A stretch of DNA of 33,937 nucleotides. Origin: Acidobacteriota bacterium (lineage in GTDB: Bacteria; Acidobacteriota; Polarisedimenticolia; Polarisedimenticolales; DASRJG01). The stretch covers positions 1-33,937 of the forward strand of contig JAYUCM010000091.1 of the NCBI GenBank assembly GCA_043740355.1, given 5' to 3'. Position 1 is the stretch's first letter, and every line of letters begins with the position of its first letter. Shown one piece after another: positions 9,823 to 27,223 of the stretch. A program made the translations under genes and the position numbers. A model generated the notes under the pieces. It saw nothing but the letters and a program-made list of their open reading frames with translations. It was not told the DNA's origin and did not search any database.

Positions 9823-10113
9823 GAGAGCCTCCGCTCGGGTCGGGCGGCCCGTCGATTCCGGGGCCGCCCGAAGCGCGCCATTCTTGCACGGGCGTCCCCG
9901 GCGAGCGCCACCGCGGCGCGACGCGCGAAGGACGTCGTGAAATCACCACGGAACCGATCGACTTTTATCGGCTATCGCGACCGCGGGTAATCGAGCCGGT
10001 TTGCGCATGCATTTCGGTTCGCGGCTCCTACGCCGCGCTCGGACGGCTCGCACCGCGGACCCGGCACGTTGGTTGCTTTGGTCAGCTGTCGAGGGGTTCC
10101 TCAGGAGAACGCG

Positions 10114-10473
10114 ATGATCTTCCCTTTGATGCAAAAAGAGCTCTCGATCGACGATTACGTGGATCGCGATGAGGAATGCAGGTTTTCGGTGTTGTTGGCC
10201 GACACCAAGTCGGAGAGCCAGGAAGAGAAGATCTACAACCGGGAGGTGGGCGCGATCGTCGAGCGGGCGCTCGGACGCCTGGACGAGCGCGAGCTCCTCA
10301 TCATCCGGAACCGTTTCGGCCTTCTCGGCGGACAGGAACAGACGCTCGAGGAGATCGGAAAACGCATGAACCTCAGTCGCGAACGCGTTCGGCAACTCGA
10401 GCGCGAAGCGAAGGACAAGCTCCGTGTTTGTCTCGGGCCGCAACGCGGTAACCTCCGCTTTTCACTGGCCTGA
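10114..10473 (+). CDS. Stand-alone sigma-70 region 3.2/4 protein (119 aa). It has no region 2.
   Basis: ATG 10114 has AGGAG 5 nt upstream. LDERELLIIRNRFGLLGGQEQTLEEIGKRMNLSRERVRQLEREAKDKLR matches the RpoD-type region 4.1/4.2 HTH. Only about 290 nt separate it from the divergent mutL start, so there is no room for regions 1.2-3.1. Confidence 0.6.
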   Translation: MIFPLMQKELSIDDYVDRDEECRFSVLLADTKSESQEEKIYNREVGAIVERALGRLDERELLIIRNRFGLLGGQEQTLEEIGKRMNLSRERVRQLEREAKDKLRVCLGPQRGNLRFSLA

Positions 10474-10491
10474 CCGTGTAATCCCCCCCCC

Positions 10492-10543
10492 GCGGCTGCC
10501 GCCGGCACCCCCCCAATCCCCCGCTTCTGCCGGCGGCGGCCGC
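10492..10543. repeat. 16-bp inverted repeat (possible terminator hairpin) between convergent genes
   Basis: GCGGCTGCCGCCGGCA (10492-10507) pairs with TGCCGGCGGCGGCCGC (10528-10543) with one G-U/mismatch. The loop is a 20-nt C-rich stretch. A C9 run precedes it at 10483-10491. There is no U-tract. Confidence 0.4.
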
Positions 10544-10564
10544 CCCTTCTCAGGGCGTCTTCGA

Positions 10565-13500
10565 TCAAAAGAGCATTCCAATCGCGAAGATCAGCGCGCC
10601 GGGGCTCTCCTCCGGCCTGCGATCGAGCTTCCATCCGTATTCGACCCGGATCGGCCCGATCGGCGTGTCGAGGCGTAAGCCGGCGCCGGCGGAGGAGCGC
10701 AGATCGGTCGGATCGAAGTCGCGGATCGTGGGGTAGACGTTTCCGGCATCGAGGAACAACTCCCCGCGCAAGCCGCGCCAGATCGGGAAGTGCCACTCTT
10801 CGTTCAACACGAAAATCGCCTCGCCTCCCGCGTTGAACCCCGACAGGTTGAGGCCGCCGACCGTGTCCGAAGCGAATCCGCGCAGAGTGTTGGACCCTCC
10901 GGCGAAGAATCGCTCGGAGAGCGGAACGATCCCCGTGCCGGCGAAGGGCTGCTCCGCGCCGATGCGGAGGAAGAGCGCGAATCGATTGCGGTGCGGGAGC
11001 GACACAGTCCACGATCCGCGCAGGAAGAGCTTGGCGAAGGACGCCTCCGAGGCGAGCGGCTTCGCGAAGACGCTGCCCTCGATCGATCCGTAGCCTCCGC
11101 GTGTCGGCGCAAACGCGTCGTCTCGCGTGTCCCGCACGAGACCGAGCCCGATATCGCCGAGCCGTAGGCTCGAAAGCTTGTCCTTGAAAATCTTCACCAA
11201 CGCAGCAGGCGCGTCGGTGACGTCGGAAATGCGCACCTCCTGGATGCTGTAGCGGAGAAAGCGGATCCACCTCGCTTTCGATCTCTGCTCGAGCCGGATC
11301 GACAGCGCCCTTCGGGTCGCGGAAAAGGAGTCCTCCGCCGACTTCTCGTAGAGAAGCGACGCGAGAGAGTCGATCGTGTTGCCGAAGACGTGCCGCCGTC
11401 GCAGCGTCAGGACCTCTTGATTTTCCTTGCCGCTGACCCGTCCTTGAAGCGCGATCGCGACGTTGCGCCCGCCGAGATTCGCATACCCGAGGAGGAAGCT
11501 CGCCCGCGGCCCGTCCACCGAGTCGTACCCCACGCCGAGGCCCAAGGCGAGCGGAGGAGCCTCCTCGACGCGCACCGTGACCGTTTGCCCCGCCGCGTCG
11601 CCGGCCGGGATCGGCGCGTAGGTCAGCCTGACTTTCGAGAAGAGTCCGGTTCGATACAGCTGCTGCTGGCTCTTGAGGAGCGATTGATTCGAGAGGAAAT
11701 CACCCCGGCCGAACGTCAGCGCTTGCGCGATCGTCCGTTTCTTGGTGACGCGGTTGCCCTCGATCGCGATCGCGGCGACGGTCTTGCGATCCCCCGCGAC
11801 GATGTCGAACGCGACGTCCGCGCGCTCGGCCGAGAGCTGGACCCGGGATTCGACGCTGACGTCGGGGTAGCCGCGAGCGTCGAATCGATCCTTGAGTACC
11901 TGCTCGGTTTCCGCGAGTCGGCGGGGCGAGAAGGTGGCGCCCGCCGTGAGCGGCGTGTCGGTGCGGAGCTCTTTGTCCGGAACCGCGGCGACGTCGGTCG
12001 CGAACGTGACGTCGCCGACCGTGAAGCGAGGTCCCTCGTGGATCGCCACGTCGACGTCGGCGCTCTCTCCCTTCGCGGAAAGCGCGACTTGCGGCGGCTC
12101 GATGCGGACGCGCGTGAACCCTTCCTCGCGGTAGAGAGCGCGCACCGCGGCGAGGTCGGCCGCGAGAACCGAGGGACGCAAGAGCCGCTTGCGCATCGCC
12201 TGGCTTTTCAGCGAGGCCATCTGCCTCTCGATCCGCTCGAGCGGAATCGACGCCACGCCGGTGAAGCGCAATGCACGCAACCGTACCGGCTTCCCGCGAT
12301 CCACGAGAATGCGGATCGCTCGCCCCGACGGCCCGTCGGACGCGCGCCACGTCACGTCGGCTGCGTAGTAGCCGGATTCCTGGAGCTCGTCGATCAGCGC
12401 CCGCGTCGCTTCGTCCCAGAACTCCGGGGTGTAGGGCGTTTCACTCCAGAATTCCGTGAGCGCCTTGCGCAGGTTCCGTTTCCCTCGGCCGCCGTCGACG
12501 ACGAGTTCGACGGTGATGTGGGGCCCTTGCACGACCCGATACACAATCCGGTACTTTTCCGGCGGGCCCGGTTCCGGCACGGCCTCGGCGCGGACCGTCG
12601 CTTGGAGGTAGCCCTCCTTCACGAGGGCGGCGCGAATGAGGTCGCCCCCTTGCAGCATGCGCCCTCGTTCGAAGCGGTCGCCGACGCGGATCTTCGCGCG
12701 CTTGACCAGTTTGGGCCGCGGGGTTTCGTCGTGGGCCTGCACCTCGACCGAGGCGACGGCGCCGGCCGCCCCGCTTTCCCGGCTCTCGATCGGGGTTCCG
12801 CCGAACTGCCGCGCGTACTGCAGCTCTCCGCCGACGCCGGCCTCCGTGTCGCTTTCCGCGATCAGGCGGATGCGCCGCGAAGCGTCCCACGCGACCTGGT
12901 AGGTCTGCTTCTGCGCGGTGCCGATGTCCTGCGAGAAGACGATCTTCACGGCGTCGCTCACCTGTTTGCCCACGGTGACCCGCGCCGTCGGGTCCGAAGT
13001 CCCCTTGAGGAACAGCGGCGTGATCTCCAGCTGATCGATGCCGAGGGAGTTCTGGATTTGCCTTCCGAACGTCGAGCTCAACAGGCCCGCGAAGTAGTAC
13101 GCGGCCATGTCGCCCGGAAGCGCGGCGGCCGACGCCGACCCGCTGAGCGAATCGAGCGTCTTTCCGGTCACCAGCAACGAGATGATGTCCTGCGAGGCGA
13201 GAGGCGGCGTCGAGGTCAGCTCGTAGTCGAACTTGTCGAGCGTGCCCTCGACGTGCAAACTGATCTCGTACTCCGCGACACGCGTGCGGCCGCGGAAGTC
13301 GACGTAGGGGTTGAGGCGCTTGGGGTCGGTCAGATCGATCGTCCCGTAGTCGATGCGGTAGTCCACGTCCCGGTAACGGACGGTGCCGCCGGGGACCATG
13401 GAGCATCGCCCCGTCAATTCGGGCCGGGCGAGCTCTCCGCCGATGTGGAGCTGTCCCGATGCCTCGACTTTGGCGACGTCGTTTCTCAGCCAGACGTTCC

Positions 13501-16500
13501 CCGGAGCCACGACGTCCAGGTCGAGGAACACGTTGCGAGGTAGAGGCGATTCGGATGCGGCGTCGAACTCGCGGTGGACTCCGCCGAACAGACCGATGTC
13601 GAGGTCCTTCGTGTACAGGCCGCGCACGACCTCGATGCGCCCCGTGATCGTCGCGCGTTTCGGTGTCCCCTCGACGGCGATGTGACCCTCGTAGGTCCCC
13701 TTGAAGCCCTCGGGAAACGTCGCGACGACGTTCGCGCCGGCGAACGTGGCGCGAAAGGACGCCGGGAGGACGCCGTTGAACTCGATCTGCCCCGTCGCCT
13801 GAACCTCGCCGCCGCCCTGAAACGCGTGGAACGACGACAACGTGAGGGTTTGCTCTTCGAAAAACGCCTCGGCGTCGATCGATTCGAGGGTCTGTGGGTA
13901 GCCGATCAGACGCAATCGCCCTCCCCGCACCGAGACCTTCCCCGAAAGGTCGGGCCGTTCTAGTGTCCCTCCGAGGGTCGCGTCGACCGTGACCGGACCT
14001 CCGCCCCGGACCTCGGACCAAAAGGACGAGACGATGGCGAGATCGACGGTCCCCCGGAGGTATCCCGTCACGGCTCCTCCCTCGATCGATCCCTCGGCCG
14101 CCACTTCGACGCCGGCGGAATCGCCTGTGAAGCGCGTCGGGCCGAGCACGAACTGTCCGCTCTCGAGACGCAGCGGGAACGGCTCGGCGGCGCGCAGCAC
14201 GCTCGGCCCGATCCGGACCGCGACCTCGTCGAACGCGCCGTCGATCTCCATCGCGCGAGGCTCGGTGAGATCGCCCTCGGCCTGGATCTGGCCCTTCAAT
14301 CGGAGATCGGCGCTCTCGCCGAAGACGCCTCCCGCGCCGGCGAGGAGATCCTCGAAGTAGAGGACCGCCGACAAGGGGAGCCTGGGCGTGAAGCCGAAGA
14401 ACCCGTCGAACGTCCACGCCGGGTCGGGGAGCGATTTCACCGTCAGCTCGAGACCGCGGGGCACGATCGTCGCCGTCCCGTCGAAATCCCCGAGCCGGAT
14501 CTCGCGCAGACCGTTGGCGCCGGCATCGATCAGGAGGTCGCTCGCGACGACGCGGAGGAGGCCCGACGGGCCTTCACGATCGACGGTCACCGACCCTTGC
14601 GTCGTGATCGTCCCCTTCGCCGTGAGACCGGCTTCGGCCAGCGTGCGGTTGAATGTGAGGTCGATGGTGGCGGAGCTCAGCTCCACCTCCGCTTGTGACT
14701 TGTCGAGATCGTAGGTCAACCGCGCGTGGGCTTCGAGCCCACGACCCCGCGCGACGAGCCCGTCGAGAATGACCTGACTCCCTTCGACGCGGACCGGCGC
14801 ATCGATCGCGTCGACGATCTCGCGACCCACCACGACGTTGCGCGCGGTGACGTTGCCCTGCGCCGCGAACGCCCCCGCATCGCGCGAGCCAACCAGCGTG
14901 AGGTCGACGAGGCCGGTCACCGCAGGTCCGACGCCGGCATGTGCCAAGACCGTGGCGATGGCGACGCCCCGTGCGGTGAGATCGACCTCGTCCAAGGCGC
15001 CGGTGGCTCCGTCAAAGCGCGCGCTCCCCGCCAAGGATTGCCCGCCGCCCGAGAGGTCGACGCGGCGGATCTCGACGGCGTTGTCTGCGACCGTCAGATC
15101 GAGAACCGCTGCGGCGAACGGCTCACCCGCGTAGGACCCCTCCGTGAGGTCGAGTCCGAAGTCAAAGCGCGTGGCCCGCCCGGTCGTCACCCCGGCCCGC
15201 ACGCTCCCGGCCCCTTCCACCGGTAGCACGGCGAACCGGTTGCGGGAGACGCCGAACGCGTCGAGGAACTTGAGCGACGCGAGCTGCGTGGCCCGGGCGG
15301 CGCGCGTCGTCCCCGAGAGGGCGAGTCGCGTCTCGCGGGGAACCGTTCCCAGGTCGGATTCGAAGCTCAGACCCAGCGAGGCTTCCGCCAAAGAGAGCTG
15401 CTCGGCGTCCACACGCACGCGACCGGACTCGAACGTCAACCGTCCATGCCCCGCTGCGGGGATCCGACCGCCCGCGCCGGTTGGAGCGCGCACCGCGTCG
15501 AAGGTCCCGCCGCCGTGCCACGTCGCCAGCCTCCCCGGATCGCCCACGATGTTGAACGTCACGTCGGCCGCGCTCGCGATGGGGAGATCCCTGCCGGCCA
15601 GGCGAATCAGGCGGGAAAGATCGGCGCCTTTCCCCGCCAGATCCGTCGTGAGCGTGAGCGAAGGGCCGAAGTTGAGCCCGACGGTGCCCGTGAACGTCCC
15701 GCCATAGGCGCGCGCATCGACGTTGGCGACGTCGAGCTGCCCGGGGCGGACCGTCAGGTCCGCGCGCGCCGTGTCGGTCTCGATCGGTCCGATGCGAAAG
15801 GCGGTCGTCGACGCCTGCATCGTGACTCGGATCGGCACACCCCCGGTGTAGACGATCTGGACGGGTCCGACCGCGTGCCCCGCGAGCGGGAGCTCGCCGA
15901 CGACATACGGGGAGAGCGCGGCGAGATCGGCGTCCAGCCGGCCCTGCGCCGTGAACGACACGCCCACCCCCCAAGTGACGTTGCCTGCCAGCTCGCCGGA
16001 AGCGCCCGGCCCTTCCCCGGTCGCGCCGAAAATCTCTAGACGACCCCCGCCCAGGCGCAACCCTCCGCGAACGGTCGCCGGCCAGGGGCGATCGAAGAGC
16101 GGCGCTTCGACCGTCGCGTTCGCATGCACCTCCCCGATGAGCAAGTGTCGCGAGCTCGACCAGTCGCCGCGAAAATCCAGCGAGCGCGCCTGGACGCGCA
16201 CGCGCTGCCGCCCGTCGACGTACTCGGCGGTCGCGTCGTCGACGACGAGCCGGTCGATCTGGACCGCAACCGGCTCTCCGCCCTTCTTGACCTTCGGCAC
16301 GAAGGCATCGATCCACTCGCGAGAGCACGAGAAGGTCGCCCCGTGCGCCACCACGTCCGTCAGATGAACGTCGCCGCCCGCGATCCCGGTCAATCCCGAC
16401 CACGCGAGCTTGACGCGCGCCTCGCCGATCGTGGCCGTGAGCGGAGCCGCTCCCCCGGCGGGGATCGAGATCGCAACGTCGCCCACGGTCGCGGCGAGGG

Positions 16501-16681
16501 TGGTCCAATCGACGTCGATGCGTCCGATCCGGACCGTGCCGCCGAGGGCCTCCGCCAGGCCCGTCTCCAAACGGCGCTGCAGCCAAGAGGTGGAGCGCGC
16601 CGGTGGCGGCGTCTGCGCGAGTGCTCCGCCCGTGGCCAGCGCGAAGGCGAACACGGAAGCCAGCGCGATGCGGCGCCTCAC
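10565..16681 (-). CDS. Fusion protein: TamB/AsmA-like translocation-and-assembly module protein (DUF490 C-terminus) joined in frame to a five-POTRA Omp85/D15 outer-membrane barrel (TamA/BamA-like)
   Basis: The frame is uninterrupted. The proposed start, GTG 16681, overlaps the rlmI TGA as GTGA and gives VRRRIALASVFAFALATGGALA-QT. The TamB-like part ends ...GKQVSDAVKIVFSQDIGTAQKQTYQVAWDASRRIRLIAESDTEAGVGGELQYARQF (F codon 12803-12805). A linker GGTPIESRESGAAGA follows. Next come about 400 aa of POTRA-length modules and a barrel (PLALGLGVGYDS...RFFAGGSNTLRGF...GPIRVEYGWKL...ALIFAIGMLF). The track ORF start at 16864 and ATG 16714 both lie inside rlmI. Confidence 0.85.
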   Translation of the reverse strand: MRRRIALASVFAFALATGGALAQTPPPARSTSWLQRRLETGLAEALGGTVRIGRIDVDWTTLAATVGDVAISIPAGGAAPLTATIGEARVKLAWSGLTGIAGGDVHLTDVVAHGATFSCSREWIDAFVPKVKKGGEPVAVQIDRLVVDDATAEYVDGRQRVRVQARSLDFRGDWSSSRHLLIGEVHANATVEAPLFDRPWPATVRGGLRLGGGRLEIFGATGEGPGASGELAGNVTWGVGVSFTAQGRLDADLAALSPYVVGELPLAGHAVGPVQIVYTGGVPIRVTMQASTTAFRIGPIETDTARADLTVRPGQLDVANVDARAYGGTFTGTVGLNFGPSLTLTTDLAGKGADLSRLIRLAGRDLPIASAADVTFNIVGDPGRLATWHGGGTFDAVRAPTGAGGRIPAAGHGRLTFESGRVRVDAEQLSLAEASLGLSFESDLGTVPRETRLALSGTTRAARATQLASLKFLDAFGVSRNRFAVLPVEGAGSVRAGVTTGRATRFDFGLDLTEGSYAGEPFAAAVLDLTVADNAVEIRRVDLSGGGQSLAGSARFDGATGALDEVDLTARGVAIATVLAHAGVGPAVTGLVDLTLVGSRDAGAFAAQGNVTARNVVVGREIVDAIDAPVRVEGSQVILDGLVARGRGLEAHARLTYDLDKSQAEVELSSATIDLTFNRTLAEAGLTAKGTITTQGSVTVDREGPSGLLRVVASDLLIDAGANGLREIRLGDFDGTATIVPRGLELTVKSLPDPAWTFDGFFGFTPRLPLSAVLYFEDLLAGAGGVFGESADLRLKGQIQAEGDLTEPRAMEIDGAFDEVAVRIGPSVLRAAEPFPLRLESGQFVLGPTRFTGDSAGVEVAAEGSIEGGAVTGYLRGTVDLAIVSSFWSEVRGGGPVTVDATLGGTLERPDLSGKVSVRGGRLRLIGYPQTLESIDAEAFFEEQTLTLSSFHAFQGGGEVQATGQIEFNGVLPASFRATFAGANVVATFPEGFKGTYEGHIAVEGTPKRATITGRIEVVRGLYTKDLDIGLFGGVHREFDAASESPLPRNVFLDLDVVAPGNVWLRNDVAKVEASGQLHIGGELARPELTGRCSMVPGGTVRYRDVDYRIDYGTIDLTDPKRLNPYVDFRGRTRVAEYEISLHVEGTLDKFDYELTSTPPLASQDIISLLVTGKTLDSLSGSASAAALPGDMAAYYFAGLLSSTFGRQIQNSLGIDQLEITPLFLKGTSDPTARVTVGKQVSDAVKIVFSQDIGTAQKQTYQVAWDASRRIRLIAESDTEAGVGGELQYARQFGGTPIESRESGAAGAVASVEVQAHDETPRPKLVKRAKIRVGDRFERGRMLQGGDLIRAALVKEGYLQATVRAEAVPEPGPPEKYRIVYRVVQGPHITVELVVDGGRGKRNLRKALTEFWSETPYTPEFWDEATRALIDELQESGYYAADVTWRASDGPSGRAIRILVDRGKPVRLRALRFTGVASIPLERIERQMASLKSQAMRKRLLRPSVLAADLAAVRALYREEGFTRVRIEPPQVALSAKGESADVDVAIHEGPRFTVGDVTFATDVAAVPDKELRTDTPLTAGATFSPRRLAETEQVLKDRFDARGYPDVSVESRVQLSAERADVAFDIVAGDRKTVAAIAIEGNRVTKKRTIAQALTFGRGDFLSNQSLLKSQQQLYRTGLFSKVRLTYAPIPAGDAAGQTVTVRVEEAPPLALGLGVGYDSVDGPRASFLLGYANLGGRNVAIALQGRVSGKENQEVLTLRRRHVFGNTIDSLASLLYEKSAEDSFSATRRALSIRLEQRSKARWIRFLRYSIQEVRISDVTDAPAALVKIFKDKLSSLRLGDIGLGLVRDTRDDAFAPTRGGYGSIEGSVFAKPLASEASFAKLFLRGSWTVSLPHRNRFALFLRIGAEQPFAGTGIVPLSERFFAGGSNTLRGFASDTVGGLNLSGFNAGGEAIFVLNEEWHFPIWRGLRGELFLDAGNVYPTIRDFDPTDLRSSAGAGLRLDTPIGPIRVEYGWKLDRRPEESPGALIFAIGMLF

Positions 16682-17868
16682 GGTGCCCCCGACGCGTCCC
16701 GCAGTACGAAGCATTTCAAGTACCGGCCTTCGGGAAACCCGAGCCGGACGGGATGGTCTGCCGCCTGTCCCCGCCGCTCGACGACGATCGCGTCCCGGCC
16801 GGCATCCGCGGCGGCCTCGCGTAAGAGGCCTTCGAACGACGGCTCGTCGAGGTTGTACGAGCACGACGACGTGACGAGCACACCGCCGGGTGCGAGGAGC
16901 CGAAGCGCGCGCACGTTGATTTCTTTGTACCCCCGGCGGGCGGCGGGAACGTCGCCGCGGCTCTTCGCGAACGCCGGGGGGTCGAGCATCACGAGATCGA
17001 ACCGTTCACCCCGCCGCTCCCGAGCGCGCAGGTCCTCGAAGGCGTTCGCTTCGACGAACGTCAGGTTTGTCGCGCCGTTCCTCGTGGCGTTGGCCCGTCC
17101 GCGGGCTAGGGCTTCCGCCGAGGCGTCGACGACGACGACCTCCGTCGCCCGTCGCGCGGCGTGGAGCGCGAACGCAGCGTGATACGAAAACACGTCGAGT
17201 ACGCGGCCGTGGCCGTACGCGCCGCAAGCGACGCGGTTTTCCCGTTGATCCAGGAATGCGCCCGTCTTTTGTCCGCGCCACGGATCGGCGGCGTAGGACA
17301 CGCCTCCCTCGTCGACGACGACCTCCTCCGGTGTGGTTCCCGACAGCTGCCGGACCTCGCGGTCGAGCCCTTCGAGCGTTCGCACGGAGGGGTCGTTCCT
17401 GGCGAGCACCGACTCGATGGCGACGCGTTCGCGCAGCCTGGCTACGACGTGATCGACGACACGCTCGGCGCCCGCCGTCAGCATCTGAACCACCAGGTGG
17501 GTTCCGTAGAGATCCGCGACGAGCCCGGGTAGATCGTCCCCTTCACCGAAGACCAGACGTCGGGCGGACCATCGCGCCAGCTCCGCGCCGCGCCGCGCGA
17601 GCGCCTCGTCGACGCGGGCCGCCCAAAACGCCCCATCGGGGACGGTATCCGTGCGAGAAACCATCCGCAGCGCGATCTTCGAGCGGGCCGACCAGAACGC
17701 GACGCCTAGAACCTCGCCTGCGTTGTCGCGGACGCGCACGAGGTCCCCGTGCGCTGCGCCGTTCGACGCGGCCACGTCGTCGCCGAAGACCCAGGGGTGA
17801 AGCGCTGCGATGCGCCGCTTGGCGCGAAGCCGGACCGTGACGTCGGGGAGCTGCCCGGGGAGCGACAT
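16678..17868 (-). CDS. rlmI: Class I SAM-dependent rRNA (cytosine-C5) methyltransferase, RlmI family (PUA-like N-terminus)
   Basis: 396 aa. DPWRGQKTGAFLDQRENR, VLDVFSYHAAFALHAA and FDLVMLDPPAFAKS (DPPxF) are typical of the RlmI/RlmK type. A GAGGA Shine-Dalgarno sequence lies upstream. Confidence 0.85.
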   Translation of the reverse strand: MSLPGQLPDVTVRLRAKRRIAALHPWVFGDDVAASNGAAHGDLVRVRDNAGEVLGVAFWSARSKIALRMVSRTDTVPDGAFWAARVDEALARRGAELARWSARRLVFGEGDDLPGLVADLYGTHLVVQMLTAGAERVVDHVVARLRERVAIESVLARNDPSVRTLEGLDREVRQLSGTTPEEVVVDEGGVSYAADPWRGQKTGAFLDQRENRVACGAYGHGRVLDVFSYHAAFALHAARRATEVVVVDASAEALARGRANATRNGATNLTFVEANAFEDLRARERRGERFDLVMLDPPAFAKSRGDVPAARRGYKEINVRALRLLAPGGVLVTSSCSYNLDEPSFEGLLREAAADAGRDAIVVERRGQAADHPVRLGFPEGRYLKCFVLRDASGAP

Positions 17869-17899: not shown

Positions 17900-18697
17900 C
17901 TACTCGTCCGAGTCGTCGCCGTCCACGACGAGCGGGTCGTCGTCGAGAACCTCGTCTTCCACCTCCGGCTCGGTCTCCTCGTCCACGGGCGCCACGTCCT
18001 CGGGCTCGTCCGTCGGCTCTTCGTCGTCGCCGACGTGGAACGGGAATTGCGGAAGCAGCCCCTTCTCCTCGAGCTCCTGGCAGCGCACGCAATGCCGGGC
18101 CCAGGGCTGAACCTCGAGGCGCTTCAGGGCGACGTCCTCGCCGCACTGCTGGCAGTACCCGTATTCGCCGCGGTCGATCCGGTTCAACGCCTCTTCGACG
18201 AGCAGGAGGTGCTTGCGGTCGAGCTCGGTGAGCGAAAGCAGGAACTCGCGCGCGTAGGAGTTCACCGCGTAGTCGACGTAGTCCTCGGTCCCGTTGTCGA
18301 GCTCCGCTTGGGAGTCGCCCTTGCTGATCGCGTAGGCGCGCATCAGGTCTTGGCGCTTCTTCAGGAGCAACTCGCGAAAGTGAGCGCGCTCCTTGCGCCG
18401 CGCGGCGATCGACGCGGGCTTCGGCACGCGCCGCTTCGGAGCCTTGGGTTTGGCGAGCGCCGGCGGCGCCTTGAGAACGGCCTTCGCCGCGCGCACGTCT
18501 TTTGGCGGCTTGCGGGAGAGCTTGCCGGGTCCCTTGGCGCCCGGCTTCACGGCCGGCTTGGCAGGTGTGGGCTTCTTCGCGACGGGCCTTGCGGCGGGCG
18601 TTTTTTTCTTCGTGGCGGCGGCCTTGGCGGGCCTCTTGGCCACGCGCTTCGCGAGCTTTCCGGCGGGCGTCTTGGCCTTCGACGACTTCGCTTTCAT
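17900..18697 (-). CDS. DksA/TraR-family C4 zinc-finger protein with a Lys/Ala/Pro-rich N-terminal tail and an acidic C-terminal tail
   Basis: CQQC-x17-CVRC zinc finger. DYVDYA fits the DksA coiled-coil tip motif DxxDxA. The first roughly 97 aa are KAKSSKAKTPAGKLAKRVAKRPAKAAATKKKTPAARPVAKKPTPAKPAVKPGAK... The last 43 aa are Asp/Glu-rich. Start taken at ATG 18697 (MKAKSS); the track start at 18799 adds a non-coding-looking leader. Confidence 0.8.
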   Translation of the reverse strand: MKAKSSKAKTPAGKLAKRVAKRPAKAAATKKKTPAARPVAKKPTPAKPAVKPGAKGPGKLSRKPPKDVRAAKAVLKAPPALAKPKAPKRRVPKPASIAARRKERAHFRELLLKKRQDLMRAYAISKGDSQAELDNGTEDYVDYAVNSYAREFLLSLTELDRKHLLLVEEALNRIDRGEYGYCQQCGEDVALKRLEVQPWARHCVRCQELEEKGLLPQFPFHVGDDEEPTDEPEDVAPVDEETEPEVEDEVLDDDPLVVDGDDSDE

Positions 18698-18746
18698 CGG
18701 GAACCCTATGTCGTGCGGGCGCGATTCACGCTCGCGAAAGCGCGGC

Positions 18747-18775
18747 ACTATACCGTCCTGCCCTCGGAGCGTCAA
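18747..18775 (-). promoter_or_regulatory. Near-consensus sigma-70 promoter upstream of the dksA-like gene
   Basis: The minus strand reads TTGACG-(17 nt)-TATAGT. The -10 ends about 50 nt upstream of ATG 18697. Confidence 0.5.
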
Positions 18776-18884
18776 GGATCGTGAGGCGCCTCGATTCATG
18801 GCAAATCACGGCCTATTCGTGCGATTCTTCGTCGTCTCCGCCTTCGGCCACCGTTTCTCCTTTACCGTGCAAAGGGGCGCCTTC

Positions 18885-19925
18885 ATGAACGTGTTGGTGA
18901 CTGGAACCGACGGGTACCTCGGCTCTCTGCTCGCACCGGTTCTGATGGGGCAGGGCTTCGACGTCACGGGTGTCGACACCGGCTACCACAGGGCGGGCTG
19001 GCTCTACAACCCCGCCGGCATGACGGTGAAGACGCTGAACAAGGACTTGCGCGAGATCGTGTCCGACGACCTCAAGGGGATCGAGGCGGTCGTCCACATG
19101 GCCGAGCTCTCGAACGACCCGGCGGGCGACCTGGCCCCCCACATCACCTACGCGATCAACCACCGAGGGTCGGTGCGGCTGGCCGAGATCGCGAAGGCGG
19201 CGGGGGTCCGCCGCTTCATCTACATGTCGTCGTGCAGCGTGTACGGGGTGGGGACGGACGACTACGTCGACGAGAACACGCCGACGAGCCCGCAGACGGC
19301 GTACGCGATCTGCAAGACCTTCGTCGAGCGCGACGTCCGGACGCTCGCCAACGACGCCTTCTCGCCGACGTTTTTTCGCAATGCAACCGCGTTCGGCGCC
19401 TCGCCGCGCATGCGCTTCGACATCGTGCTGAACAATCTATGCGGCCTGGCCTTCACGACCCGCGAAATCAAGATGACGAGCGATGGGTCGCCCTGGCGGC
19501 CGTTGGTGCACGGCCTCGACATCTGCCGGGCGATCGCCGCCTCCCTGAACGCCCCCCGGGAAAACGTCCACAACGAGATCATGAACGTCGGCGACACGGC
19601 GCAGAACTACCGCGTGCGGGAAATCGCGGAGATCGTGGGCGAGGTGTTCCCCGGCTGCGCCGTGTCGTTCGGCGCCGTCGGCTCGGACAACCGCAGCTAC
19701 CGAGTGTCCTTCGAGAAGATCCACAAGCACCTTCCGAGCTTCCGCTGCGCCTGGGACGCGCGACGCGGCGCACGGCAGCTGTTGGAATTGTTCAAGAGAA
19801 TCAACTTCACCGCCGAGATGTTCCAGCATCGGGGATTCACCCGATTGAAGCAGCTCGAGTACCTGTTGAAGACCGGCCAGATCGATTCGAACTTCTTCTG
19901 GACGAAGACCGATTTCCTCGACTGA
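18885..19925 (+). CDS. NAD-dependent sugar epimerase/reductase (extended SDR)
   Basis: MNVLVTGTDGYLGS Rossmann motif, SSCSVYG and YAICK (YxxxK). It lacks the TDE signature I associate with 4,6-dehydratases. The track ORF upstream of 18885 is antisense to the dksA-like gene. Confidence 0.85.
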   Translation: MNVLVTGTDGYLGSLLAPVLMGQGFDVTGVDTGYHRAGWLYNPAGMTVKTLNKDLREIVSDDLKGIEAVVHMAELSNDPAGDLAPHITYAINHRGSVRLAEIAKAAGVRRFIYMSSCSVYGVGTDDYVDENTPTSPQTAYAICKTFVERDVRTLANDAFSPTFFRNATAFGASPRMRFDIVLNNLCGLAFTTREIKMTSDGSPWRPLVHGLDICRAIAASLNAPRENVHNEIMNVGDTAQNYRVREIAEIVGEVFPGCAVSFGAVGSDNRSYRVSFEKIHKHLPSFRCAWDARRGARQLLELFKRINFTAEMFQHRGFTRLKQLEYLLKTGQIDSNFFWTKTDFLD

Positions 19926-20013
19926 AAGCCGAGAAAGCGGCGCGCTCTTGCCTTCCGGGTCTCCCCGGGACTACGTTTTGTCCGCACACGAGGCGTGAGG
20001 GTAAAGCCAAGCG

Positions 20014-20577
20014 ATGATATTCACCGAGACGAAGCTCAAGGGCGCCTACCTCATCGACCTCGAACGCCGGGAGGACTCGCGCGGGTTCTTCGCGCGATCG
20101 TTTTGCCAGAACGAGTTCGAGGCGCACGGCCTGAAGCCGATCATCGCGCAGTCGAACCTGGCCTTCAACCACCTCAAGGGGACGCTGCGCGGGATGCACT
20201 TCCAGTTTCCCCCCTCCGCCGAAACGAAGCTCGTTCGCGCGACGCGGGGCGCGATTCTCGACATCATCGTCGACCTCCGCCCGGAGAGCGCGACCTACCT
20301 GCGGCACATCGCGGTGACGCTCGACGAAGACAATCACCGCGCTCTCTACGTCCCCGAGCGCTTCGCGCACGGGTATCAAGTTCTCGCGGACCGCACCGAG
20401 ACGAGCTACCAGGTCGGCGCGTTCTATGCTCCGTCCTGCGAAAGCGGCTTGCGCCACGACGACCCGAGGCTCCGGCTCACGTGGCCGCTGCCCGTCTCGG
20501 TCATCTCCGACAAGGACCAGGTATTCAAGCTCTTGGACGAGGTCGAGCCGGAGCTCAAGCGCCGCATGAGCGCCTAG
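20014..20577 (+). CDS. rmlC: NDP-4-dehydro-6-deoxyhexose 3,5-epimerase (RmlC-type cupin)
   Basis: DSRGFFARSF...LRGMHFQ...KLVRATRGAILDIIVD...YVPERFAHGY aligns by eye with E. coli RmlC motifs. Confidence 0.9.
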   Translation: MIFTETKLKGAYLIDLERREDSRGFFARSFCQNEFEAHGLKPIIAQSNLAFNHLKGTLRGMHFQFPPSAETKLVRATRGAILDIIVDLRPESATYLRHIAVTLDEDNHRALYVPERFAHGYQVLADRTETSYQVGAFYAPSCESGLRHDDPRLRLTWPLPVSVISDKDQVFKLLDEVEPELKRRMSA

Positions 20578-20611
20578 ACCGCCAAGCTCGCGTTACAACG
20601 AGGAACCGCGG

Positions 20612-21943
20612 ATGATCATCGTCGACAACGCGCTGCGGGCCCGTGAGGAGCAAGGGAAACCGATTCGCGTCGGCATGCTCGGCGCCGGGTTCATGGGACA
20701 GGGGCTCGCGAATCAGATCGTCAACAGCGTCCCCGGCATGCACCTCGACGCCGTATACAGCCGCAAGCCGGAGAAGGGCCGCCACGTCTTCAACTACGCG
20801 GGCCGCGAAGGCGTCGTCGTCGCGACCACGCAGGCGCAATGCGAAGACGCTCTCCGTGCGGGGAAGCCGGTGGTGACCGAAGACGCCTTCCTGCTCGCGC
20901 GCTCTCCCAGCCTCGATGTCCTCGTGGACGTCACCGGCAGCGTCGAGTTCGGAGCGAACGTCTTCATGGAAGCGTTCCGCCACCGCAAGGACGTCGTCCT
21001 GATGAACGCCGAGCTCGACGCGACGATCGGGCCGATCATGCAGGTGCATGCGAAAAAACAAGGCGTGATCATGTCGGCCTGCGACGGGGACGAGCCCGGA
21101 GTTCAGATGAACCTCTGCCGCTGGGTCAAGGGCCTGGGGTTGATCCCGCGCGTCATGGGGAACATCAAGGGTCTCCAAGATCCCTACCGCAACCCGACGA
21201 CCCAAGCCGGGTTCGCGGAGAAGTGGAGACAGAATCCCGCGATGGTCACGAGCTTCGCCGACGGCTCGAAGATCAGCTTCGAGCAGGCGATCGTGGCGAA
21301 CGCCACGGGGTTTTCCGTCCAGTCCCGGGGGATGTCGCGGGGCCGGGAATATCGCGGTGACGTCATGAAGATCGGGGAGCTCTACGACATCGACGCGTTG
21401 CGGCGCCTAGGCGGCGTCGTCGACTACGTCGTGGGCACCCCGCTGACCAAGGTCTACTGCCTGGCCGAGCATCCCGATCCCAAGCAGCAGCACTACCTGA
21501 GCCTCTACAAGATGGGCGACGGGCCCCTCTACCCGTTCTTCATCCCCTACCACCTCGTTCACTTCGAGGCGCCCTCGGCGATCGCCCGCGTCGTTTTGTT
21601 CCGCGATCCCGTCGCGGAGCCTTTGGGCGGTCCGGTGGTCGAGGTCTGCGCCGTGGCGAAGACCAGCCTCACGGCCGGTCAGGTTCTCGACGATTACGGC
21701 ATGTACATGACCTACGGAGAGGCGGTCAACGTCGAGGAGATGAGCGCCAACCGCTATCTCCCCGAGGGCCTCGTCGAAGGCTGCAAGCTCACGCGAGACA
21801 TCGCGAAAGACGCCGTCATCACATACGACGACGTCGAGCTCCCCGCGAACCGGCTCGCCGACCGGCTGCGTGCCGAGCAGTACGTCCACTTTCGACGCGA
21901 GTCGTGGCTGTCCGATCGGCTCAAGGTGGGAGGTCGAACGTGA
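20612..21943 (+). CDS. NAD(P)-binding oxidoreductase with a C-terminal SAF-like domain (homoserine-dehydrogenase-like, COG4091-type)
   Basis: N-terminal Rossmann motif (VGMLGAGFMGQG). 443 aa. Family assignment is from memory of this architecture, which is commonly found in sugar-modification clusters. A GAGGA Shine-Dalgarno sequence lies 7 nt upstream. Confidence 0.7.
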   Translation: MIIVDNALRAREEQGKPIRVGMLGAGFMGQGLANQIVNSVPGMHLDAVYSRKPEKGRHVFNYAGREGVVVATTQAQCEDALRAGKPVVTEDAFLLARSPSLDVLVDVTGSVEFGANVFMEAFRHRKDVVLMNAELDATIGPIMQVHAKKQGVIMSACDGDEPGVQMNLCRWVKGLGLIPRVMGNIKGLQDPYRNPTTQAGFAEKWRQNPAMVTSFADGSKISFEQAIVANATGFSVQSRGMSRGREYRGDVMKIGELYDIDALRRLGGVVDYVVGTPLTKVYCLAEHPDPKQQHYLSLYKMGDGPLYPFFIPYHLVHFEAPSAIARVVLFRDPVAEPLGGPVVEVCAVAKTSLTAGQVLDDYGMYMTYGEAVNVEEMSANRYLPEGLVEGCKLTRDIAKDAVITYDDVELPANRLADRLRAEQYVHFRRESWLSDRLKVGGRT

Positions 21944-22722
21944 AGGTCGTGCTGTTTTGCGGGGGCTTCGGTATGCGCATGCGCGAGTTCTCCGAAGCCA
22001 TCCCCAAGCCGATGGTCCCGATCGGCTACCGCCCCATCCTGTGGCACGTGATGAAGTACTACGCCCACTACGGGCACAAGGACTTCATCCTGTGCCTGGG
22101 GTACAAGGCCGATGTCATCAAGAACTACTTCCTCGAGTACGACGAGTGCCTGTCCAACGACTTCGTCTTCTCGAAGGGCGGGAAGAGCCTGGAGCTGCTG
22201 AGTCGAGACATCGACGACTGGAACATCACGTTCGTCGACACCGGGCTCACGACGAACATCGGCGGGCGCCTCAAGGCCGTGCAGAAACACCTGAAGGGCG
22301 AGCCGGTGTTCCTCGCCAACTACACGGACGGACTGTCGGACGTCCATCTGCCCTCCGTCGTCGGCGCCTTCGAGCGGAGCCGGAACGTGGCCTCGTTCGT
22401 GAGCGTGAAGCCTCGGGCCAGCTTCCACCTGATCGATACGGACGACGCGGGCGTCGTGAAGAGCATCGAGCACATCGGAAAATCGGGGTCGAGGATCAAC
22501 GGCGGATTCCTCGCCTTGCGGCCTGAGATCTTCGACTACCTGAACGACGGTGAAGATCTCGTCGAGGAGCCGTTCCGGCGTCTCATCGCGGACGGCAAGC
22601 TGATGGCGTACCCGCACGAGGGATTCTGGGCGTGCATGGACACGTTCAAGGAGAGGCAGGAGCTCGAAGACGTCTACGGCCGGGGGAACGCGCCGTGGGC
22701 CGTCTGGAATCATCGCGATTGA
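21940..22722 (+). CDS. rfbF: Glucose-1-phosphate cytidylyltransferase
   Basis: GTG 21940 forms a GTGA overlap with the upstream stop. VKVVLFCGGFGMRMREFSEAIPKPMVPIGYRPILWHVMKYY...INGGFLAL...GFWACMDTFKERQELE...GNAPWAVW closely parallels Salmonella RfbF. Confidence 0.9.
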   Translation: MKVVLFCGGFGMRMREFSEAIPKPMVPIGYRPILWHVMKYYAHYGHKDFILCLGYKADVIKNYFLEYDECLSNDFVFSKGGKSLELLSRDIDDWNITFVDTGLTTNIGGRLKAVQKHLKGEPVFLANYTDGLSDVHLPSVVGAFERSRNVASFVSVKPRASFHLIDTDDAGVVKSIEHIGKSGSRINGGFLALRPEIFDYLNDGEDLVEEPFRRLIADGKLMAYPHEGFWACMDTFKERQELEDVYGRGNAPWAVWNHRD

Positions 22723-22849
22723 CTCGGCGTCCCCCGAGGCATCGAAGCGCAATTACTTCCTTTTCCTCCGCGGCGGCCTGAACTATGCTCCGCGCGGACG
22801 ACCGCTGGGAGCTGGTCGCGCATTCCGCGCGATGTTGAAAGGGGGCTCG

Positions 22850-23884
22850 ATGACGATGAGACGAGGGGTGAGGCTCGCGGCGCTCGCGATCGCCGCCGTG
22901 ACGGTGATCGGGGTCGCGCGAGCCAGCGACAAGGACGACGGTTTCTTCATCTTCTTGGACGCCGCGTACGCTTCGCCGCAGAACACCGACGAGGTTCTGG
23001 CGACGACGCAACTGTTCGGGGCGACGCAGTCCGAGTCGACGATTCGAACGGATTTTGGCAACGACTTCGGGGGTCGCCTGGGATTCGGCTACAAGTGGAA
23101 GGGTGGCGGGAGCCTCAGCGTCCAGTATTGGAAGTACGACACGGACGAGCGGACCCAAGCCGACGGCCCGGCGGGCGGGTTCATGAATTTCGCGATCGGT
23201 CCGGCGTCGACCTACTACGTCGCTGGCTATCCCGTTGGTGCCTACTATTATCGCGGCACGTACGGCTTTCCCGGCTCGCTGGACATCGAGTCGAAGGTCA
23301 AGGCCCAAACGCTTGACGTGATCTGGGGCCGCGATCACGACCTCACCGAGAATCTGACGCTCGGGTGGTCGCTCGGCCTCCGTTATGCGAAGTTCGAAGA
23401 GACGATCACGGGCACGTACGACTCCTACGAAGCGGCTTCCGCCGGCTACTACTCGTACGATGTTCGCAAGCACAACAAAGGCACGATGGCCGGCTTCAAG
23501 GCCGGCCTGCGGGTGACGCGGAACTTCGGCAAGAGCTTCGGCGTATCCTCGGGACTGGGCTTCTCGTTCCTCAAAGGGAAGGTCGAATCCACGTCCAGCC
23601 GAGGCTACCCGGTCGGCTCGTTCGGGGACGAGAACGGGCTGGGCGTAACACTGGCATCGTCGCGCGACAAGGACCGCTCAGGTCTGATTCGCGATTTTGA
23701 CGTTGGATGCTACTGGCGCATCGCCGACGATCACTTCCGCGTGGGGGTCGGATGGGAGCAATCGTCCTGGGACGGCGTTCCCCACGATCTCATACGGAAC
23801 ACCCAAGGCTCCCTGGTCAACGTGCCGGAGCGCAACAACGTCGCGTTCTCGGGCTGGAAGATCGGTCTCTACGGCCGATTCTGA
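22850..23884 (+). CDS. Outer-membrane beta-barrel protein (putative porin)
   Basis: ATG 22850 follows GAAAGGGGG. Signal peptide MTMRRGVRLAALAIAAVTVIGVARA. The sequence is Gly/Tyr/Phe-rich with alternating hydrophobic residues. The C-terminus WKIGLYGRF ends in the terminal aromatic typical of barrels. Confidence 0.65.
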   Translation: MTMRRGVRLAALAIAAVTVIGVARASDKDDGFFIFLDAAYASPQNTDEVLATTQLFGATQSESTIRTDFGNDFGGRLGFGYKWKGGGSLSVQYWKYDTDERTQADGPAGGFMNFAIGPASTYYVAGYPVGAYYYRGTYGFPGSLDIESKVKAQTLDVIWGRDHDLTENLTLGWSLGLRYAKFEETITGTYDSYEAASAGYYSYDVRKHNKGTMAGFKAGLRVTRNFGKSFGVSSGLGFSFLKGKVESTSSRGYPVGSFGDENGLGVTLASSRDKDRSGLIRDFDVGCYWRIADDHFRVGVGWEQSSWDGVPHDLIRNTQGSLVNVPERNNVAFSGWKIGLYGRF

Positions 23885-23911
23885 CGCGCTCCGCCATACG
23901 GCTGTCTCGAC

Positions 23912-23939
23912 AGGCCGGCCCTTCGGGGCCGGCCTTTTT
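23912..23939 (+). terminator. Rho-independent terminator
   Basis: A GGCCGGCCC-TTCG-GGGCCGGCC perfect 9-bp GC stem with a tetraloop is followed by TTTTT. It lies between convergent genes, and the T-tract abuts the stop of the minus-strand gene. Confidence 0.75.
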
Positions 23940-26983: not shown

Positions 26984-27145
26984 CCCTGCCTCCTCGTCCG
27001 CAAGCGCTCGTTACGGCAAACGACCCGGAGCGCGACGATCGCGTTTCGAATCGCGCGGAGGCTAGCACGCCTGACGCCGGTCGCGTCGTAGAGTACCGGC
27101 GACCCTTTCGATTCTGAATTCCCGTGCGGCCAGGGTTTTCCCCGA

Positions 27146-27174
27146 TGGACAACGTTCCCCACAGACTTCATATT
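27146..27174 (+). promoter_or_regulatory. Candidate sigma-70 promoter for the barrel-pgs operon
   Basis: TGGACA-(17 nt)-CATATT lies about 50 nt upstream of ATG 27224. It is only a partial match to consensus. Confidence 0.3.
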
Positions 27175-27223
27175 GAAGCGGGTGAGCAGACCGGCTAGGA
27201 GAGAGCACGCGAGGCGATCAACG

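Follow-up and report, generated by a model that had tools for sequence, protein, structure and literature searches.

A TamB–Omp85 gene fusion in Acidobacteriota, probably a single-chain version of a TAM-like trans-envelope module

The window analysed here, a stretch of 33,937 nucleotides from an uncultured Acidobacteriota bacterium of the class Polarisedimenticolia (contig JAYUCM010000091.1), encodes a TamB-like protein and an Omp85 barrel as one polypeptide. From N- to C-terminus it consists of a Sec signal or anchor, about 1,290 aa of TamB/AsmA-like sequence, a linker of 14–15 aa, five POTRA domains and a 16-strand Omp85 barrel, and Pfam, NCBIfam, a PDB sequence search and two AlphaFold2 (AF2) models agree on this architecture. 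The analysis establishes the open reading frame, domain order and fold of the protein, its conservation, and its descent from a pair of genes of which the second lost its signal peptide. It is a genuine gene fusion, and we consider it likely that it is a single-chain version of the TAM-like (TamB plus Omp85) trans-envelope module. As such it modifies a two-protein machine that is already known and reveals no new kind of machine; no paper describing a TamB–Omp85 fusion was found in the literature searched. The features are as follows.

16678–17868, minus strand: RlmI-like SAM methyltransferase gene upstream of the fusion (Pfam PUA_3 and Methyltrans_SAM; synteny conserved)
10565–16681, minus strand: TamB–Omp85 fusion CDS, 2,038 aa plus stop at 10565–10567, GTG start at 16681 (open frame, domain matches, collinear homologues)
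16619–16681, minus strand: N-terminal Sec signal or anchor, aa 1–21 (MRRRIALASVFAFALATGGALA followed by Q), signal-peptide-like with small residues at -3 and -1 (sequence reading and AF2)
16544–16585, minus strand: amphipathic helix, aa 33–46 (SWLQRRLETGLAEAL), conserved, at the start of the groove (AF2 helix 33–46)
13823–16543, minus strand: repeating beta-groove (AsmA/TamB-like beta-taco), aa 47–953 (AF2, Foldseek, Pfam)
12803–13822, minus strand: TamB (DUF490) domain, aa 954–1293 (PF04357, E 1.5e-43)
12761–12802, minus strand: junction linker, aa 1294–1307 (GGTPIESRESGAAG), FGG[T/A]P conserved, remainder variable in sequence and length (junction alignment)
11561–12760, minus strand: five POTRA domains, five beta-alpha-alpha-beta-beta units in the AF2 model
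12527–12760 (P1), 12299–12520 (P2), 12038–12283 (P3), 11798–12022 (P4) and 11561–11782 (P5), minus strand: limits of the single POTRA domains (AF2)
10568–11551, minus strand: 16-strand Omp85 beta-barrel, aa 1711–2038 (PF01103; 16 strands in AF2), C-terminal EYGWKLDR...GMLF

On the minus strand the frame is uninterrupted from 16864 to the stop at 10565–10567. The GTG at 16681, which the earlier note had taken as the start, is the best start of the fusion gene: a GGGGG run lies 7 nt 5' of it, it overlaps the TGA stop (16680–16678) of the RlmI-like methyltransferase gene as GTGA, and the equivalent MRR/VRR forms the N-terminal start in most homologues. Domain-match positions quoted below were counted from an ATG at 16714, and 11 has to be subtracted to obtain the 2,038-aa numbering. 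The stop/start overlap indicates that the methyltransferase and the fusion are probably one transcription unit; the methyltransferase is no functional part of the fusion. Upstream lie rlmI-like and dksA-like genes and downstream sigma70_r4, mutL and SLT.

The earlier note had named three observations that would speak against a fusion, namely a stop or frameshift at the junction, a signal peptide or internal start there, or an N-terminal part unlike TamB/AsmA. None of these was found: in the window sequence the junction holds no stop, no frameshift, no hydrophobic segment and no start with a signal peptide, and profile searches show the N-terminal part to be TamB/AsmA-like. With one frame of 2,038 codons, matching domains and collinear homologues, the proposed single-ORF fusion holds. 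That a missed stop codon or frameshift in sequencing or assembly merged two adjacent genes is effectively refuted. Related lineages do have neighbouring tamB and omp85 genes in different frames, and apparent frameshifts occur at some long-read MAG loci (L025, L026), but the in-frame junction is repeated in hundreds of independent assemblies with its motif conserved and without a signal peptide, and it reads cleanly in the window. Moreover, a merged pair would retain a signal peptide of about 25 aa, which is absent here.

The TamB (DUF490) domain was recognized by PF04357 (aa 965–1304 counted from ATG 16714; 150 bits versus a cut-off of 22.4), and the match ends exactly at the F codon at 12803–12805. 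In the PDB sequence search it matched the E. coli TamB chains 9xdc_B and 23sp_B, aligned to E. coli TamB residues 848–1187. The model for the proteobacterial TamB equivalog (NF047952) gave 32 bits versus a cut-off of 825; judged by sequence, the TamB half is a distant member of the TamB family and no equivalog of proteobacterial TamB. The last 77 or so aa of the domain (12803–13033) form six amphipathic beta strands that end in ...GGELQYARQF (DSSP strands at model positions 329–405 in the AF2 model of the last 1,150 aa), and few parts of the protein are as conserved as these last TamB strands. A terminal aromatic residue is common to the TamB module of the fusions and the C-termini of unfused TamB: the latter end in ...YALEVRKRxxF, and in the fusions this F still closes the module, ahead of GG. 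Ahead of DUF490 lies a long repeating beta-groove as expected of TamB/AsmA-like proteins, for which AF2 of aa 1–1000 (pLDDT 85.5) predicts about 60 consecutive strands with short helices between them. Foldseek matched this groove to LPD-3/BLTP1 (E 6e-7) and the ApoB100 beta-belt. The Pfam matches in this region (DUF748 and YhdP) are weak, and homologues give stronger AsmA-like N-terminal matches.

An N-terminal signal or anchor, as proposed in the earlier note, is present, but in the subclade of the window it resembles a cleavable signal peptide more closely than it does a membrane anchor. The hydrophobic region spans about 12–18 aa and is followed by ALA, then Q and a disordered Pro-rich stretch; AF2 predicts a helix at 2–17 and disorder in the Pro-rich residues 17–27. 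Clade B fusions, unlike this subclade, have clear N-terminal anchors of 19–20 aa. The cleavable appearance of the N-terminus makes it less likely that a single chain sits in both membranes, and if the signal peptide is cleaved the chain may lack the inner membrane anchoring that E. coli TamB has. The clade A alignment of the amphipathic helix shows W33 and E39 to be invariant.

The Omp85 half has four significant stretches of PF07244 (POTRA) and one match to PF01103 (aa 1746–2046 counted from ATG 16714; 142 bits, E 3.4e-41). Like BamA it combines five POTRA domains with a 16-strand barrel that carries the conserved RGF loop-6 motif (SERFFAGGSNTLRGF; NTLRGF is present), and the PDB sequence matches of the barrel half are to BamA (E 1e-41). 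Foldseek aligned about 800 columns to E. coli BamA, itself a five-POTRA protein. The TamA equivalog model (NF047950) gave 127 bits versus a cut-off of 625, and the POTRA domains number five and not three, so that the earlier note was right to place this half nearer to BamA than to TamA. The BamA equivalog model (TIGR03303) gave 309.4 bits versus a cut-off of 297.15, a score that is not discriminating, as unfused TamB-adjacent paralogues reach 265–357 and bona fide BamA reaches 453.

These results bear on the possibility that the Omp85 half is the housekeeping BamA of the cell and the whole protein a covalent BAM–TamB machine for general outer-membrane protein insertion, like a fused version of the Borrelia BamA–TamB. 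The score above the TIGR03303 cut-off, the five POTRA domains, the stronger sequence and fold matches to BamA than to TamA, and the lack of a second Omp85 gene within the window would fit this reading, but we regard it as unlikely. The score is borderline, and since the TamB-adjacent paralogues score alike, likeness to BamA is no proof of a housekeeping BamA. The gene does not lie in a typical BamA neighbourhood (rseP-bamA-skp-lpxD, with the skp-lpxD-fabZ cluster) but between the rlmI-like gene and mutL, and some MAGs carry two fused paralogues (L024 and L030, L019 and L022). Acidobacteria are reported to have a canonical BamA in addition to a duplicated, TamB-linked BamA (Heinz et al., 2015), and substrate folding is regarded as incompatible with a gate filled by TamB strands (PMC13119328).

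At the junction, AF2 of the last 1,150 aa (pLDDT 78) shows the six-strand TamB end followed by a 14-residue coil with pLDDT below 50, in line with the linker of about 15 aa described before. The length of the linker across 168 fusions is mostly 13–39 aa (median 21). The earlier note had also stated that the Omp85 half has no signal peptide of its own. Indeed, it lacks the cleavable signal peptide of a BamA and no hydrophobic segment occurs at the junction, whereas unfused relatives carry their Omp85 signal peptide at exactly this position (L004, MPMWRLMVAASLAAWLTAVPAWA followed by GQ; L053). An Omp85 half that is not exportable alone, and a linker with predicted disorder and with no fixed sequence or length, could also point to a polyprotein or export device, in which the linker is cleaved after translocation and separate TamB and Omp85 proteins form an ordinary two-subunit TAM. 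We find this very unlikely. The linker is short and starts with the conserved FGG[T/A]P, no protease motif or autoproteolytic domain is evident, and the literature consulted on Omp85 and TamB biology yielded no precedent. Nor is there an obvious need for a free TamB C-terminus, given that the strand finishes at the periplasmic face.

The TamB–Omp85 fusion is widespread in Acidobacteriota and not rare. The earlier note had called for a survey of homologues with the same domain order, and one search gave about 75 collinear proteins of 2,000–2,350 aa. In an exhaustive search the best 150 cluster representatives (50% identity) were all collinear with the query and none was a relative with a separate Omp85. 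At least 1,900 aa were present in 111 of 145 new representatives; those of full length or longer align over the junction, and the short ones that were checked are contig-truncated fragments. Protein P0041 (locus L003), which appeared to be a 'split' close homologue, was rejected because a scaffold gap of Ns causes the split. Full-length homologues are 54–82% identical and those of a second clade 24–34%. These findings speak for selection on the fused state. Polarisedimenticolia, Bryobacterales-like and other Acidobacteriota carry the fused gene. tamB and omp85 are kept as neighbours, in this order, in Thermoanaerobaculia, Holophagae and Vicinamibacteria-like relatives, where Omp85 has its own signal peptide; the unfused pair was found at about 45 loci (Thermoanaerobaculia, Holophagae and others). 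At L004 a gene for a POTRA and Omp85 protein of 992 aa with its own signal peptide overlaps the preceding tamB by 1 nt. A neighbour-joining tree of the barrel domain has the fused clades nested among TamB-adjacent unfused Omp85 proteins. Adjacent genes and a signal peptide in unfused relatives indicate that the fusion came about by loss of the stop codon and the signal peptide. A deletion in a tightly packed tamB-omp85 ancestor probably removed both, and the fusion probably arose more than once.

In a single-chain TAM-like module the whole chain would be exported by the single N-terminal Sec signal, and the repeating beta-groove of about 1,200 aa would form a hydrophobic conduit across the periplasm. 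By analogy with E. coli TamAB and the modelled Borrelia BamA–TamB, the last amphipathic strands (beta-signal-like ...LQYARQF) may dock at strand beta1 of the lateral gate of the barrel in their own chain, after which the tether of 14–15 aa would return to POTRA1. The chain would stay uncleaved and act like TAM, bringing phospholipid to the outer membrane and/or aiding the assembly of a subset of outer-membrane proteins, and general insertion would probably be left to a separate housekeeping BamA. In the parts of fusion-bearing genomes that were covered, no second BamA was found.

The earlier note had stated that exactly the interacting ends of TamA and TamB are joined. The ends are covalently linked, but the docking it assumed is an older picture: in the 2026 cryo-EM structures from E. 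coli, the last TamB strand, at the very C-terminus, runs antiparallel to beta1 of the TamA barrel to give a hybrid barrel, and a separate coupling loop binds the POTRA domains (PMC12800296, PMC13119328). The antiparallel pairing puts the TamB C-terminus at the periplasmic face, and with the last TamB strand as the gate-binding one, the fusion connects this strand to the N-terminus of POTRA1 by a short tether. In the Borrelia model, TamB likewise builds this hybrid barrel with a BamA of five POTRA domains, and POTRA1 lies near POTRA5 (PMC13382580), which makes a short tether geometrically plausible. A tether of 14–15 aa spans about 50 Å at most; if the POTRA arm does not curl back, this is at the limit for the distance from barrel gate to POTRA1. 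The best Foldseek TM-scores for the Omp85 half were to substrate-engaged, open BamA (8qn4 0.62, 8bnz 0.59; closed about 0.45), which lends weak, model-based support to a docked gate. Amphipathic strands and the conserved terminal F are further indirect support for the hybrid barrel. The MI-APC covariation signal between TamB strands and barrel was dominated by clade structure.

It is possible, but on balance doubtful, that the protein is a natural, permanently tethered single-chain TAM with its TamB strands in its own barrel gate that, in the subclade of the window, has also lost the inner-membrane anchor to what is now a cleavable signal peptide. The trans-envelope lipid bridge would in that case be suspended from the outer membrane, with the conserved amphipathic helix as its only contact to the inner membrane. 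For TAM-type systems this would mean an Omp85 barrel that is a docking and exit port and not an insertase, and a ready single-chain construct would be at hand for settling the dispute on hybrid versus non-hybrid states.

Like the E. coli TAM, the fusion combines a TamB DUF490 domain, whose six-strand amphipathic end closes with an aromatic residue, with an Omp85 partner made up of POTRA domains and a 16-strand barrel, and it follows the general plan of a periplasm-spanning beta-groove docked to an outer-membrane barrel. It differs in being one polypeptide instead of two, in the order tamB-omp85 with five POTRA domains instead of tamA-tamB with three, in its TamB C-terminus, which is not free, in its cleavable-looking N-terminus, and in failing both the TamA (127 versus 625 bits) and the proteobacterial TamB model (32 versus 825). 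The hybrid BAM–TAM of Borrelia burgdorferi (BB0795/BB0794) likewise has TamB and a five-POTRA BamA-type Omp85, in the order tamB-bamA, for which the hybrid barrel with POTRA1 near POTRA5 was modelled. However, these are two separate proteins and BamA is the sole and essential one, whereas the Omp85 of the fusion belongs to the TamB-linked acidobacterial lineage. The 'duplicated BamA' encoded beside TamB in Acidobacteria (Heinz et al., 2015) and the unfused pairs (L004, L027–L079) share with the fusion the Omp85 lineage in the barrel tree, the gene order and the phylum. These Omp85 proteins keep their own signal peptide and measure 930–1,000 aa, a length that together with the alignment offset suggests about seven POTRA domains, in contrast to five and no signal peptide in the fusion.

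[quoted passage not shown] A natural fusion that occurs so widely is independent genomic evidence, of the Rosetta-stone kind, that TamB works with a BamA-like barrel as one obligate 1:1 unit outside Proteobacteria, and its short, length-constrained tether requires that the last TamB strand ends on the periplasmic side, within about 50–100 Å of POTRA1. The fusion also provides a single-chain construct for structural and biochemical work, and extends the evolutionary record of the acidobacterial TAM lineage by fused states, probably of repeated origin, and by variation in POTRA number. A repeating beta-groove conduit at an Omp85 or outer-membrane partner is likewise found in chloroplast TIC236–TOC75 and other bridge-like lipid-transfer proteins (YhdP, YdbH–YnbE and BLTP1/LPD-3), but their components are separate polypeptides. 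A precedent for one polypeptide reaching both inner and outer membrane is VirB10 of type IV secretion, which is unrelated to the fusion in fold, function and outer-membrane insertion, as it inserts by helices and not by a beta-barrel.

The reading frame of the fusion is open on the minus strand of the window sequence from 16864 to the stop codon at 10565-10567. The most likely start codon is that of the earlier note, GTG 16681, which overlaps with the upstream stop codon, follows a G-rich stretch and lies at the position equivalent to the MRR/VRR with which most homologues start. From this codon the product is 2,038 aa. An exact-sequence look-up of the protein gave no match with either this start or the alternative ATG 16714, which makes the protein 11 residues longer and from which the domain coordinates are numbered. 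Pfam recognized the following domains:

aa 965-1304 (from ATG 16714), TamB domain (PF04357), ending exactly at the F encoded by 12803-12805
POTRA domains, four significant stretches
aa 1746-2046 (from ATG 16714), Omp85 domain (PF01103)

The frame at the junction is open and clean, with neither a stop codon nor a frameshift, and a check for an independent start or signal peptide of the Omp85 half found neither. The AlphaFold2 model of aa 1-1000 (pLDDT 85.5) starts with a helix and a disordered Pro-rich stretch; after a conserved amphipathic helix come about 60 consecutive strands, which form a repeating beta-groove in the model. In the PDB it was matched best by the ApoB100 beta-belt, by LPD-3 (E 6e-7), a bridge-like lipid-transfer protein, and by LptD. 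Together with PF04357 and the sequence alignment of this half to residues 848-1187 of E. coli TamB, the groove model bears out the earlier claim that the N-terminal half is TamB-like. None of the three refuting results named in the earlier note was obtained. The last 1,150 aa were modelled on an alignment of 74 fused homologues (pLDDT 78) and contain a TamB C-terminal domain of helices and six beta strands (final strand GVGGELQYARQF), a 14-residue low-confidence coil directly after it, and sixteen barrel strands at the C-terminal end.

The extreme N-terminus differs between the fused clades. In the subclade of the window protein, a short hydrophobic region is followed by ALA|Q and a disordered Pro-rich segment, which looks like a cleavable Sec signal peptide (window 16619-16681), and the chain may therefore not be embedded in both membranes. 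After this signal-like N-terminus comes the strongly conserved amphipathic helix SWLQRRLETGLAEAL (window 16544-16585). Fusions of the second, Bryobacterales-like clade have a 19-20-aa TM anchor instead, followed by LHTPxV.

The fusion is not restricted to this contig. A word-indexed search over 5.8 billion proteins retrieved about 75 full-length proteins with the identical Pfam order, which fall into a first group of about 2,040 aa with 54-82% identity (one member named Candidatus Polarisedimenticolia) and a second group of 2,000-2,350 aa with 24-34% identity (one member named Bryobacterales). The junction-spanning 1,150 aa were also searched exhaustively with HMMER against 1.84 billion cluster representatives, and all of the best 150 matches aligned collinearly; in the full-length and longer matches the aligned stretches cross the junction, and 111 of the 145 new representatives among these 150 were at least 1,900 aa long. 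The short Omp85-only matches were considered as standalone genes, but the entries checked start in mid-domain and lack a signal peptide, and they are therefore contig-truncated fragments. Only one close homologue appeared split: in the locus L003 a run of N in the scaffold at 12198-12207 falsely divides a homologue of 66% identity, giving a TamB of 1,376 aa (P0041) and an ORF of 698 aa. P0041 was rejected as a natural split, since the break coincides with this run. In three loci from long-read MAGs (L025, L026 and L023) the fusion is interrupted into two frames inside POTRA or TamB sequence, most likely by frameshift errors and not by true splits. At the junction, the aligned fusions share a conserved Q-Y-x-x-x-F-G-G-[T/A]-P motif, which is followed by a variable linker and strand 1 of POTRA1. 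This linker measures 13-39 aa in most of 168 fusions (median 21) and 14-15 aa in the window protein.

In public databases the fusion proteins carry generic names ('outer membrane protein insertion porin family', 'TamB domain-containing protein'). Full-text literature searches and the main papers on TAM evolution, review and structure gave no account of a naturally occurring TamB-Omp85/BamA fusion, and the strings 'fus', 'fusion' and 'fused' were absent from the main TAM papers checked for them. The fusion is a Rosetta-stone joining of two known partners that is widespread within one phylum, and to specialists it should be useful rather than startling.

The earlier note likened the five POTRA modules to BamA. 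The Omp85 half scores 309 bits against the BamA equivalog model TIGR03303 (cut-off 297), with the TamA and TamB equivalog models far under their cut-offs, and Foldseek aligned it to full-length E. coli BamA over about 800 columns (E 2e-44), with TamA first appearing at rank 50. The likeness to BamA thus stands, but it does not establish a housekeeping BamA. Its score against TIGR03303 is borderline: unfused TamB-linked paralogues reach 265-357 bits and a true BamA 453. Nor does the fusion gene lie near skp or lpxD. A separate canonical BamA has been reported in Acidobacteria (Heinz et al.); searches for one in fusion-bearing genomes, using the Omp85 half, second loci and the neighbours of paralogues, returned only further TamB-linked Omp85 genes. 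Two candidates, P0146 and P0147, were rejected because they belong to tamA-type omp85→tamB pairs.

Unfused relatives were found by scanning one genome per GTDB species with the alignment of window-like fusions alone as query. This gave 73 loci, nearly all from Acidobacteriota MAGs. The Polarisedimenticolia-like loci and several of unclassified Acidobacteriota (L007-L022, L024, L030) have one fused ORF. In about 45 others, which belong to Thermoanaerobaculia, Holophagae or, in a few cases, MAGs with different labels, tamB is directly followed by a separate omp85 in a different frame. The pair in L004 has a one-base overlap, and its 992-aa Omp85 opens with a classical signal peptide; L053 is like it. 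The unfused TamB ends in YALEVRKRxxF, and the fusions retain the F, after which they read GG. A deletion of the tamB stop codon and of the signal peptide of about 25 codons would be the simplest history. Length and alignment offset indicate about two extra POTRA domains in the unfused partners, in agreement with the seven-POTRA duplicated BamA of Acidobacteria (Heinz et al., 2015). Both gene orders occur among the matches, as L080 and L081 encode the weakly related Omp85 proteins P0147 and P0146 in the opposite, tamA-type order; the fused state was seen only in the order tamB→omp85.

A neighbour-joining tree was calculated, without bootstraps, from 271 barrel domains. In it, 163 fused proteins, the window protein among them, form one clade; sister to this clade is a group of 51 fused (Bryobacterales-like) and 8 unfused proteins, including that of L004, and next outward are 38 unfused sequences and one fused protein. 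This nesting tentatively suggests two or more fusions, or else a single fusion with a later fission. Some Acidobacteriota MAGs carry two copies, either fused (L024 and L030 in CAWIIB010000009.1; L019 and L022 in JAQAZP01) or as unfused pairs (L038 and L053 in CAZQLL01). The second fused copy lies in another gene context: RtcB and archease precede it, and genes for an MBL-fold protein and an FG-GAP/beta-propeller protein are found downstream.

In the 2026 cryo-EM structures of E. coli TamAB, the very last TamB strand (1251-1259) pairs with TamA beta1 in antiparallel orientation, three further TamB strands lie at or within the opened TamA barrel, and a POTRA domain is augmented by a coupling loop; by the disulfide pairs of these studies, the C-terminus of TamB is located at the periplasmic face (PMC12800296, PMC13119328). 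For Borrelia, a hybrid barrel was modelled between a five-POTRA BamA and TamB, with POTRA1 close to POTRA5 (PMC13382580). Like E. coli TamAB, the window protein has six C-terminal TamB strands and a terminal aromatic residue. Hydrophobic and polar residues alternate in the sequence of its last four TamB strands, and the C-terminal strand segment is very highly conserved. From these features and the E. coli and Borrelia precedents, we infer that the TamB end would dock at the gate of the barrel of its own chain, from where a short tether would run to POTRA1. By TM-score the model comes closest to open, substrate-engaged BamA states, which points weakly to the same arrangement; in an MI-APC analysis, the covariation of the TamB C-terminal strands with the barrel mostly reflects clade-specific signal. 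The earlier note took the interacting ends to be covalently joined. Ends are indeed joined, but they are the gate-binding strand and POTRA1 and not two mutually docking surfaces. Based on the TAM literature, the fusion may function as a phospholipid conduit and/or in the assembly of selected outer-membrane proteins.

The fusion starts at a GTG that overlaps, as GTGA, with the TGA stop codon of the RlmI-like methyltransferase gene upstream (window 16678-16681), which suggests co-transcription or translational coupling of the two genes. The synteny dksA-like, rlmI-like / fusion / mutL is kept even at about 31% identity (L015, L021). The neighbourhood of the fusion also includes:

10069-10473, plus strand, 134-aa protein, essentially a sigma-70 region 4 domain alone, convergent to the fusion gene and conserved in L001, L002 and L003
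17900-18799, minus strand, 299-aa DksA/TraR zinc-finger protein, a conserved neighbour of fused homologues in L001 and L015

A scan of the convergent intergenic region 10300-10700 found no terminator or promoter, and no terminator-like hairpin in the gap of about 90 nt. The C4 finger of the DksA/TraR protein lies at residues 211-246, so the protein has a long N-terminal extension. A block at about 18400-31900 is missing in L001, a syntenic contig on which PPDK adjoins the dksA-like gene. Besides several ORFs without a Pfam match, this block carries:

18393-19925, plus strand, NAD-dependent epimerase
20612-21943, plus strand, DRL-type oxidoreductase
22832-23884, plus strand, Legionella_OMP-like protein

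Lastly, a 1,014-aa protein (23939-26983, minus strand) has an unusual domain combination: besides a weak SPFH/Band-7 match, it contains a type I phosphodiesterase/nucleotide pyrophosphatase domain and, at the C-terminus, a long TPR array.
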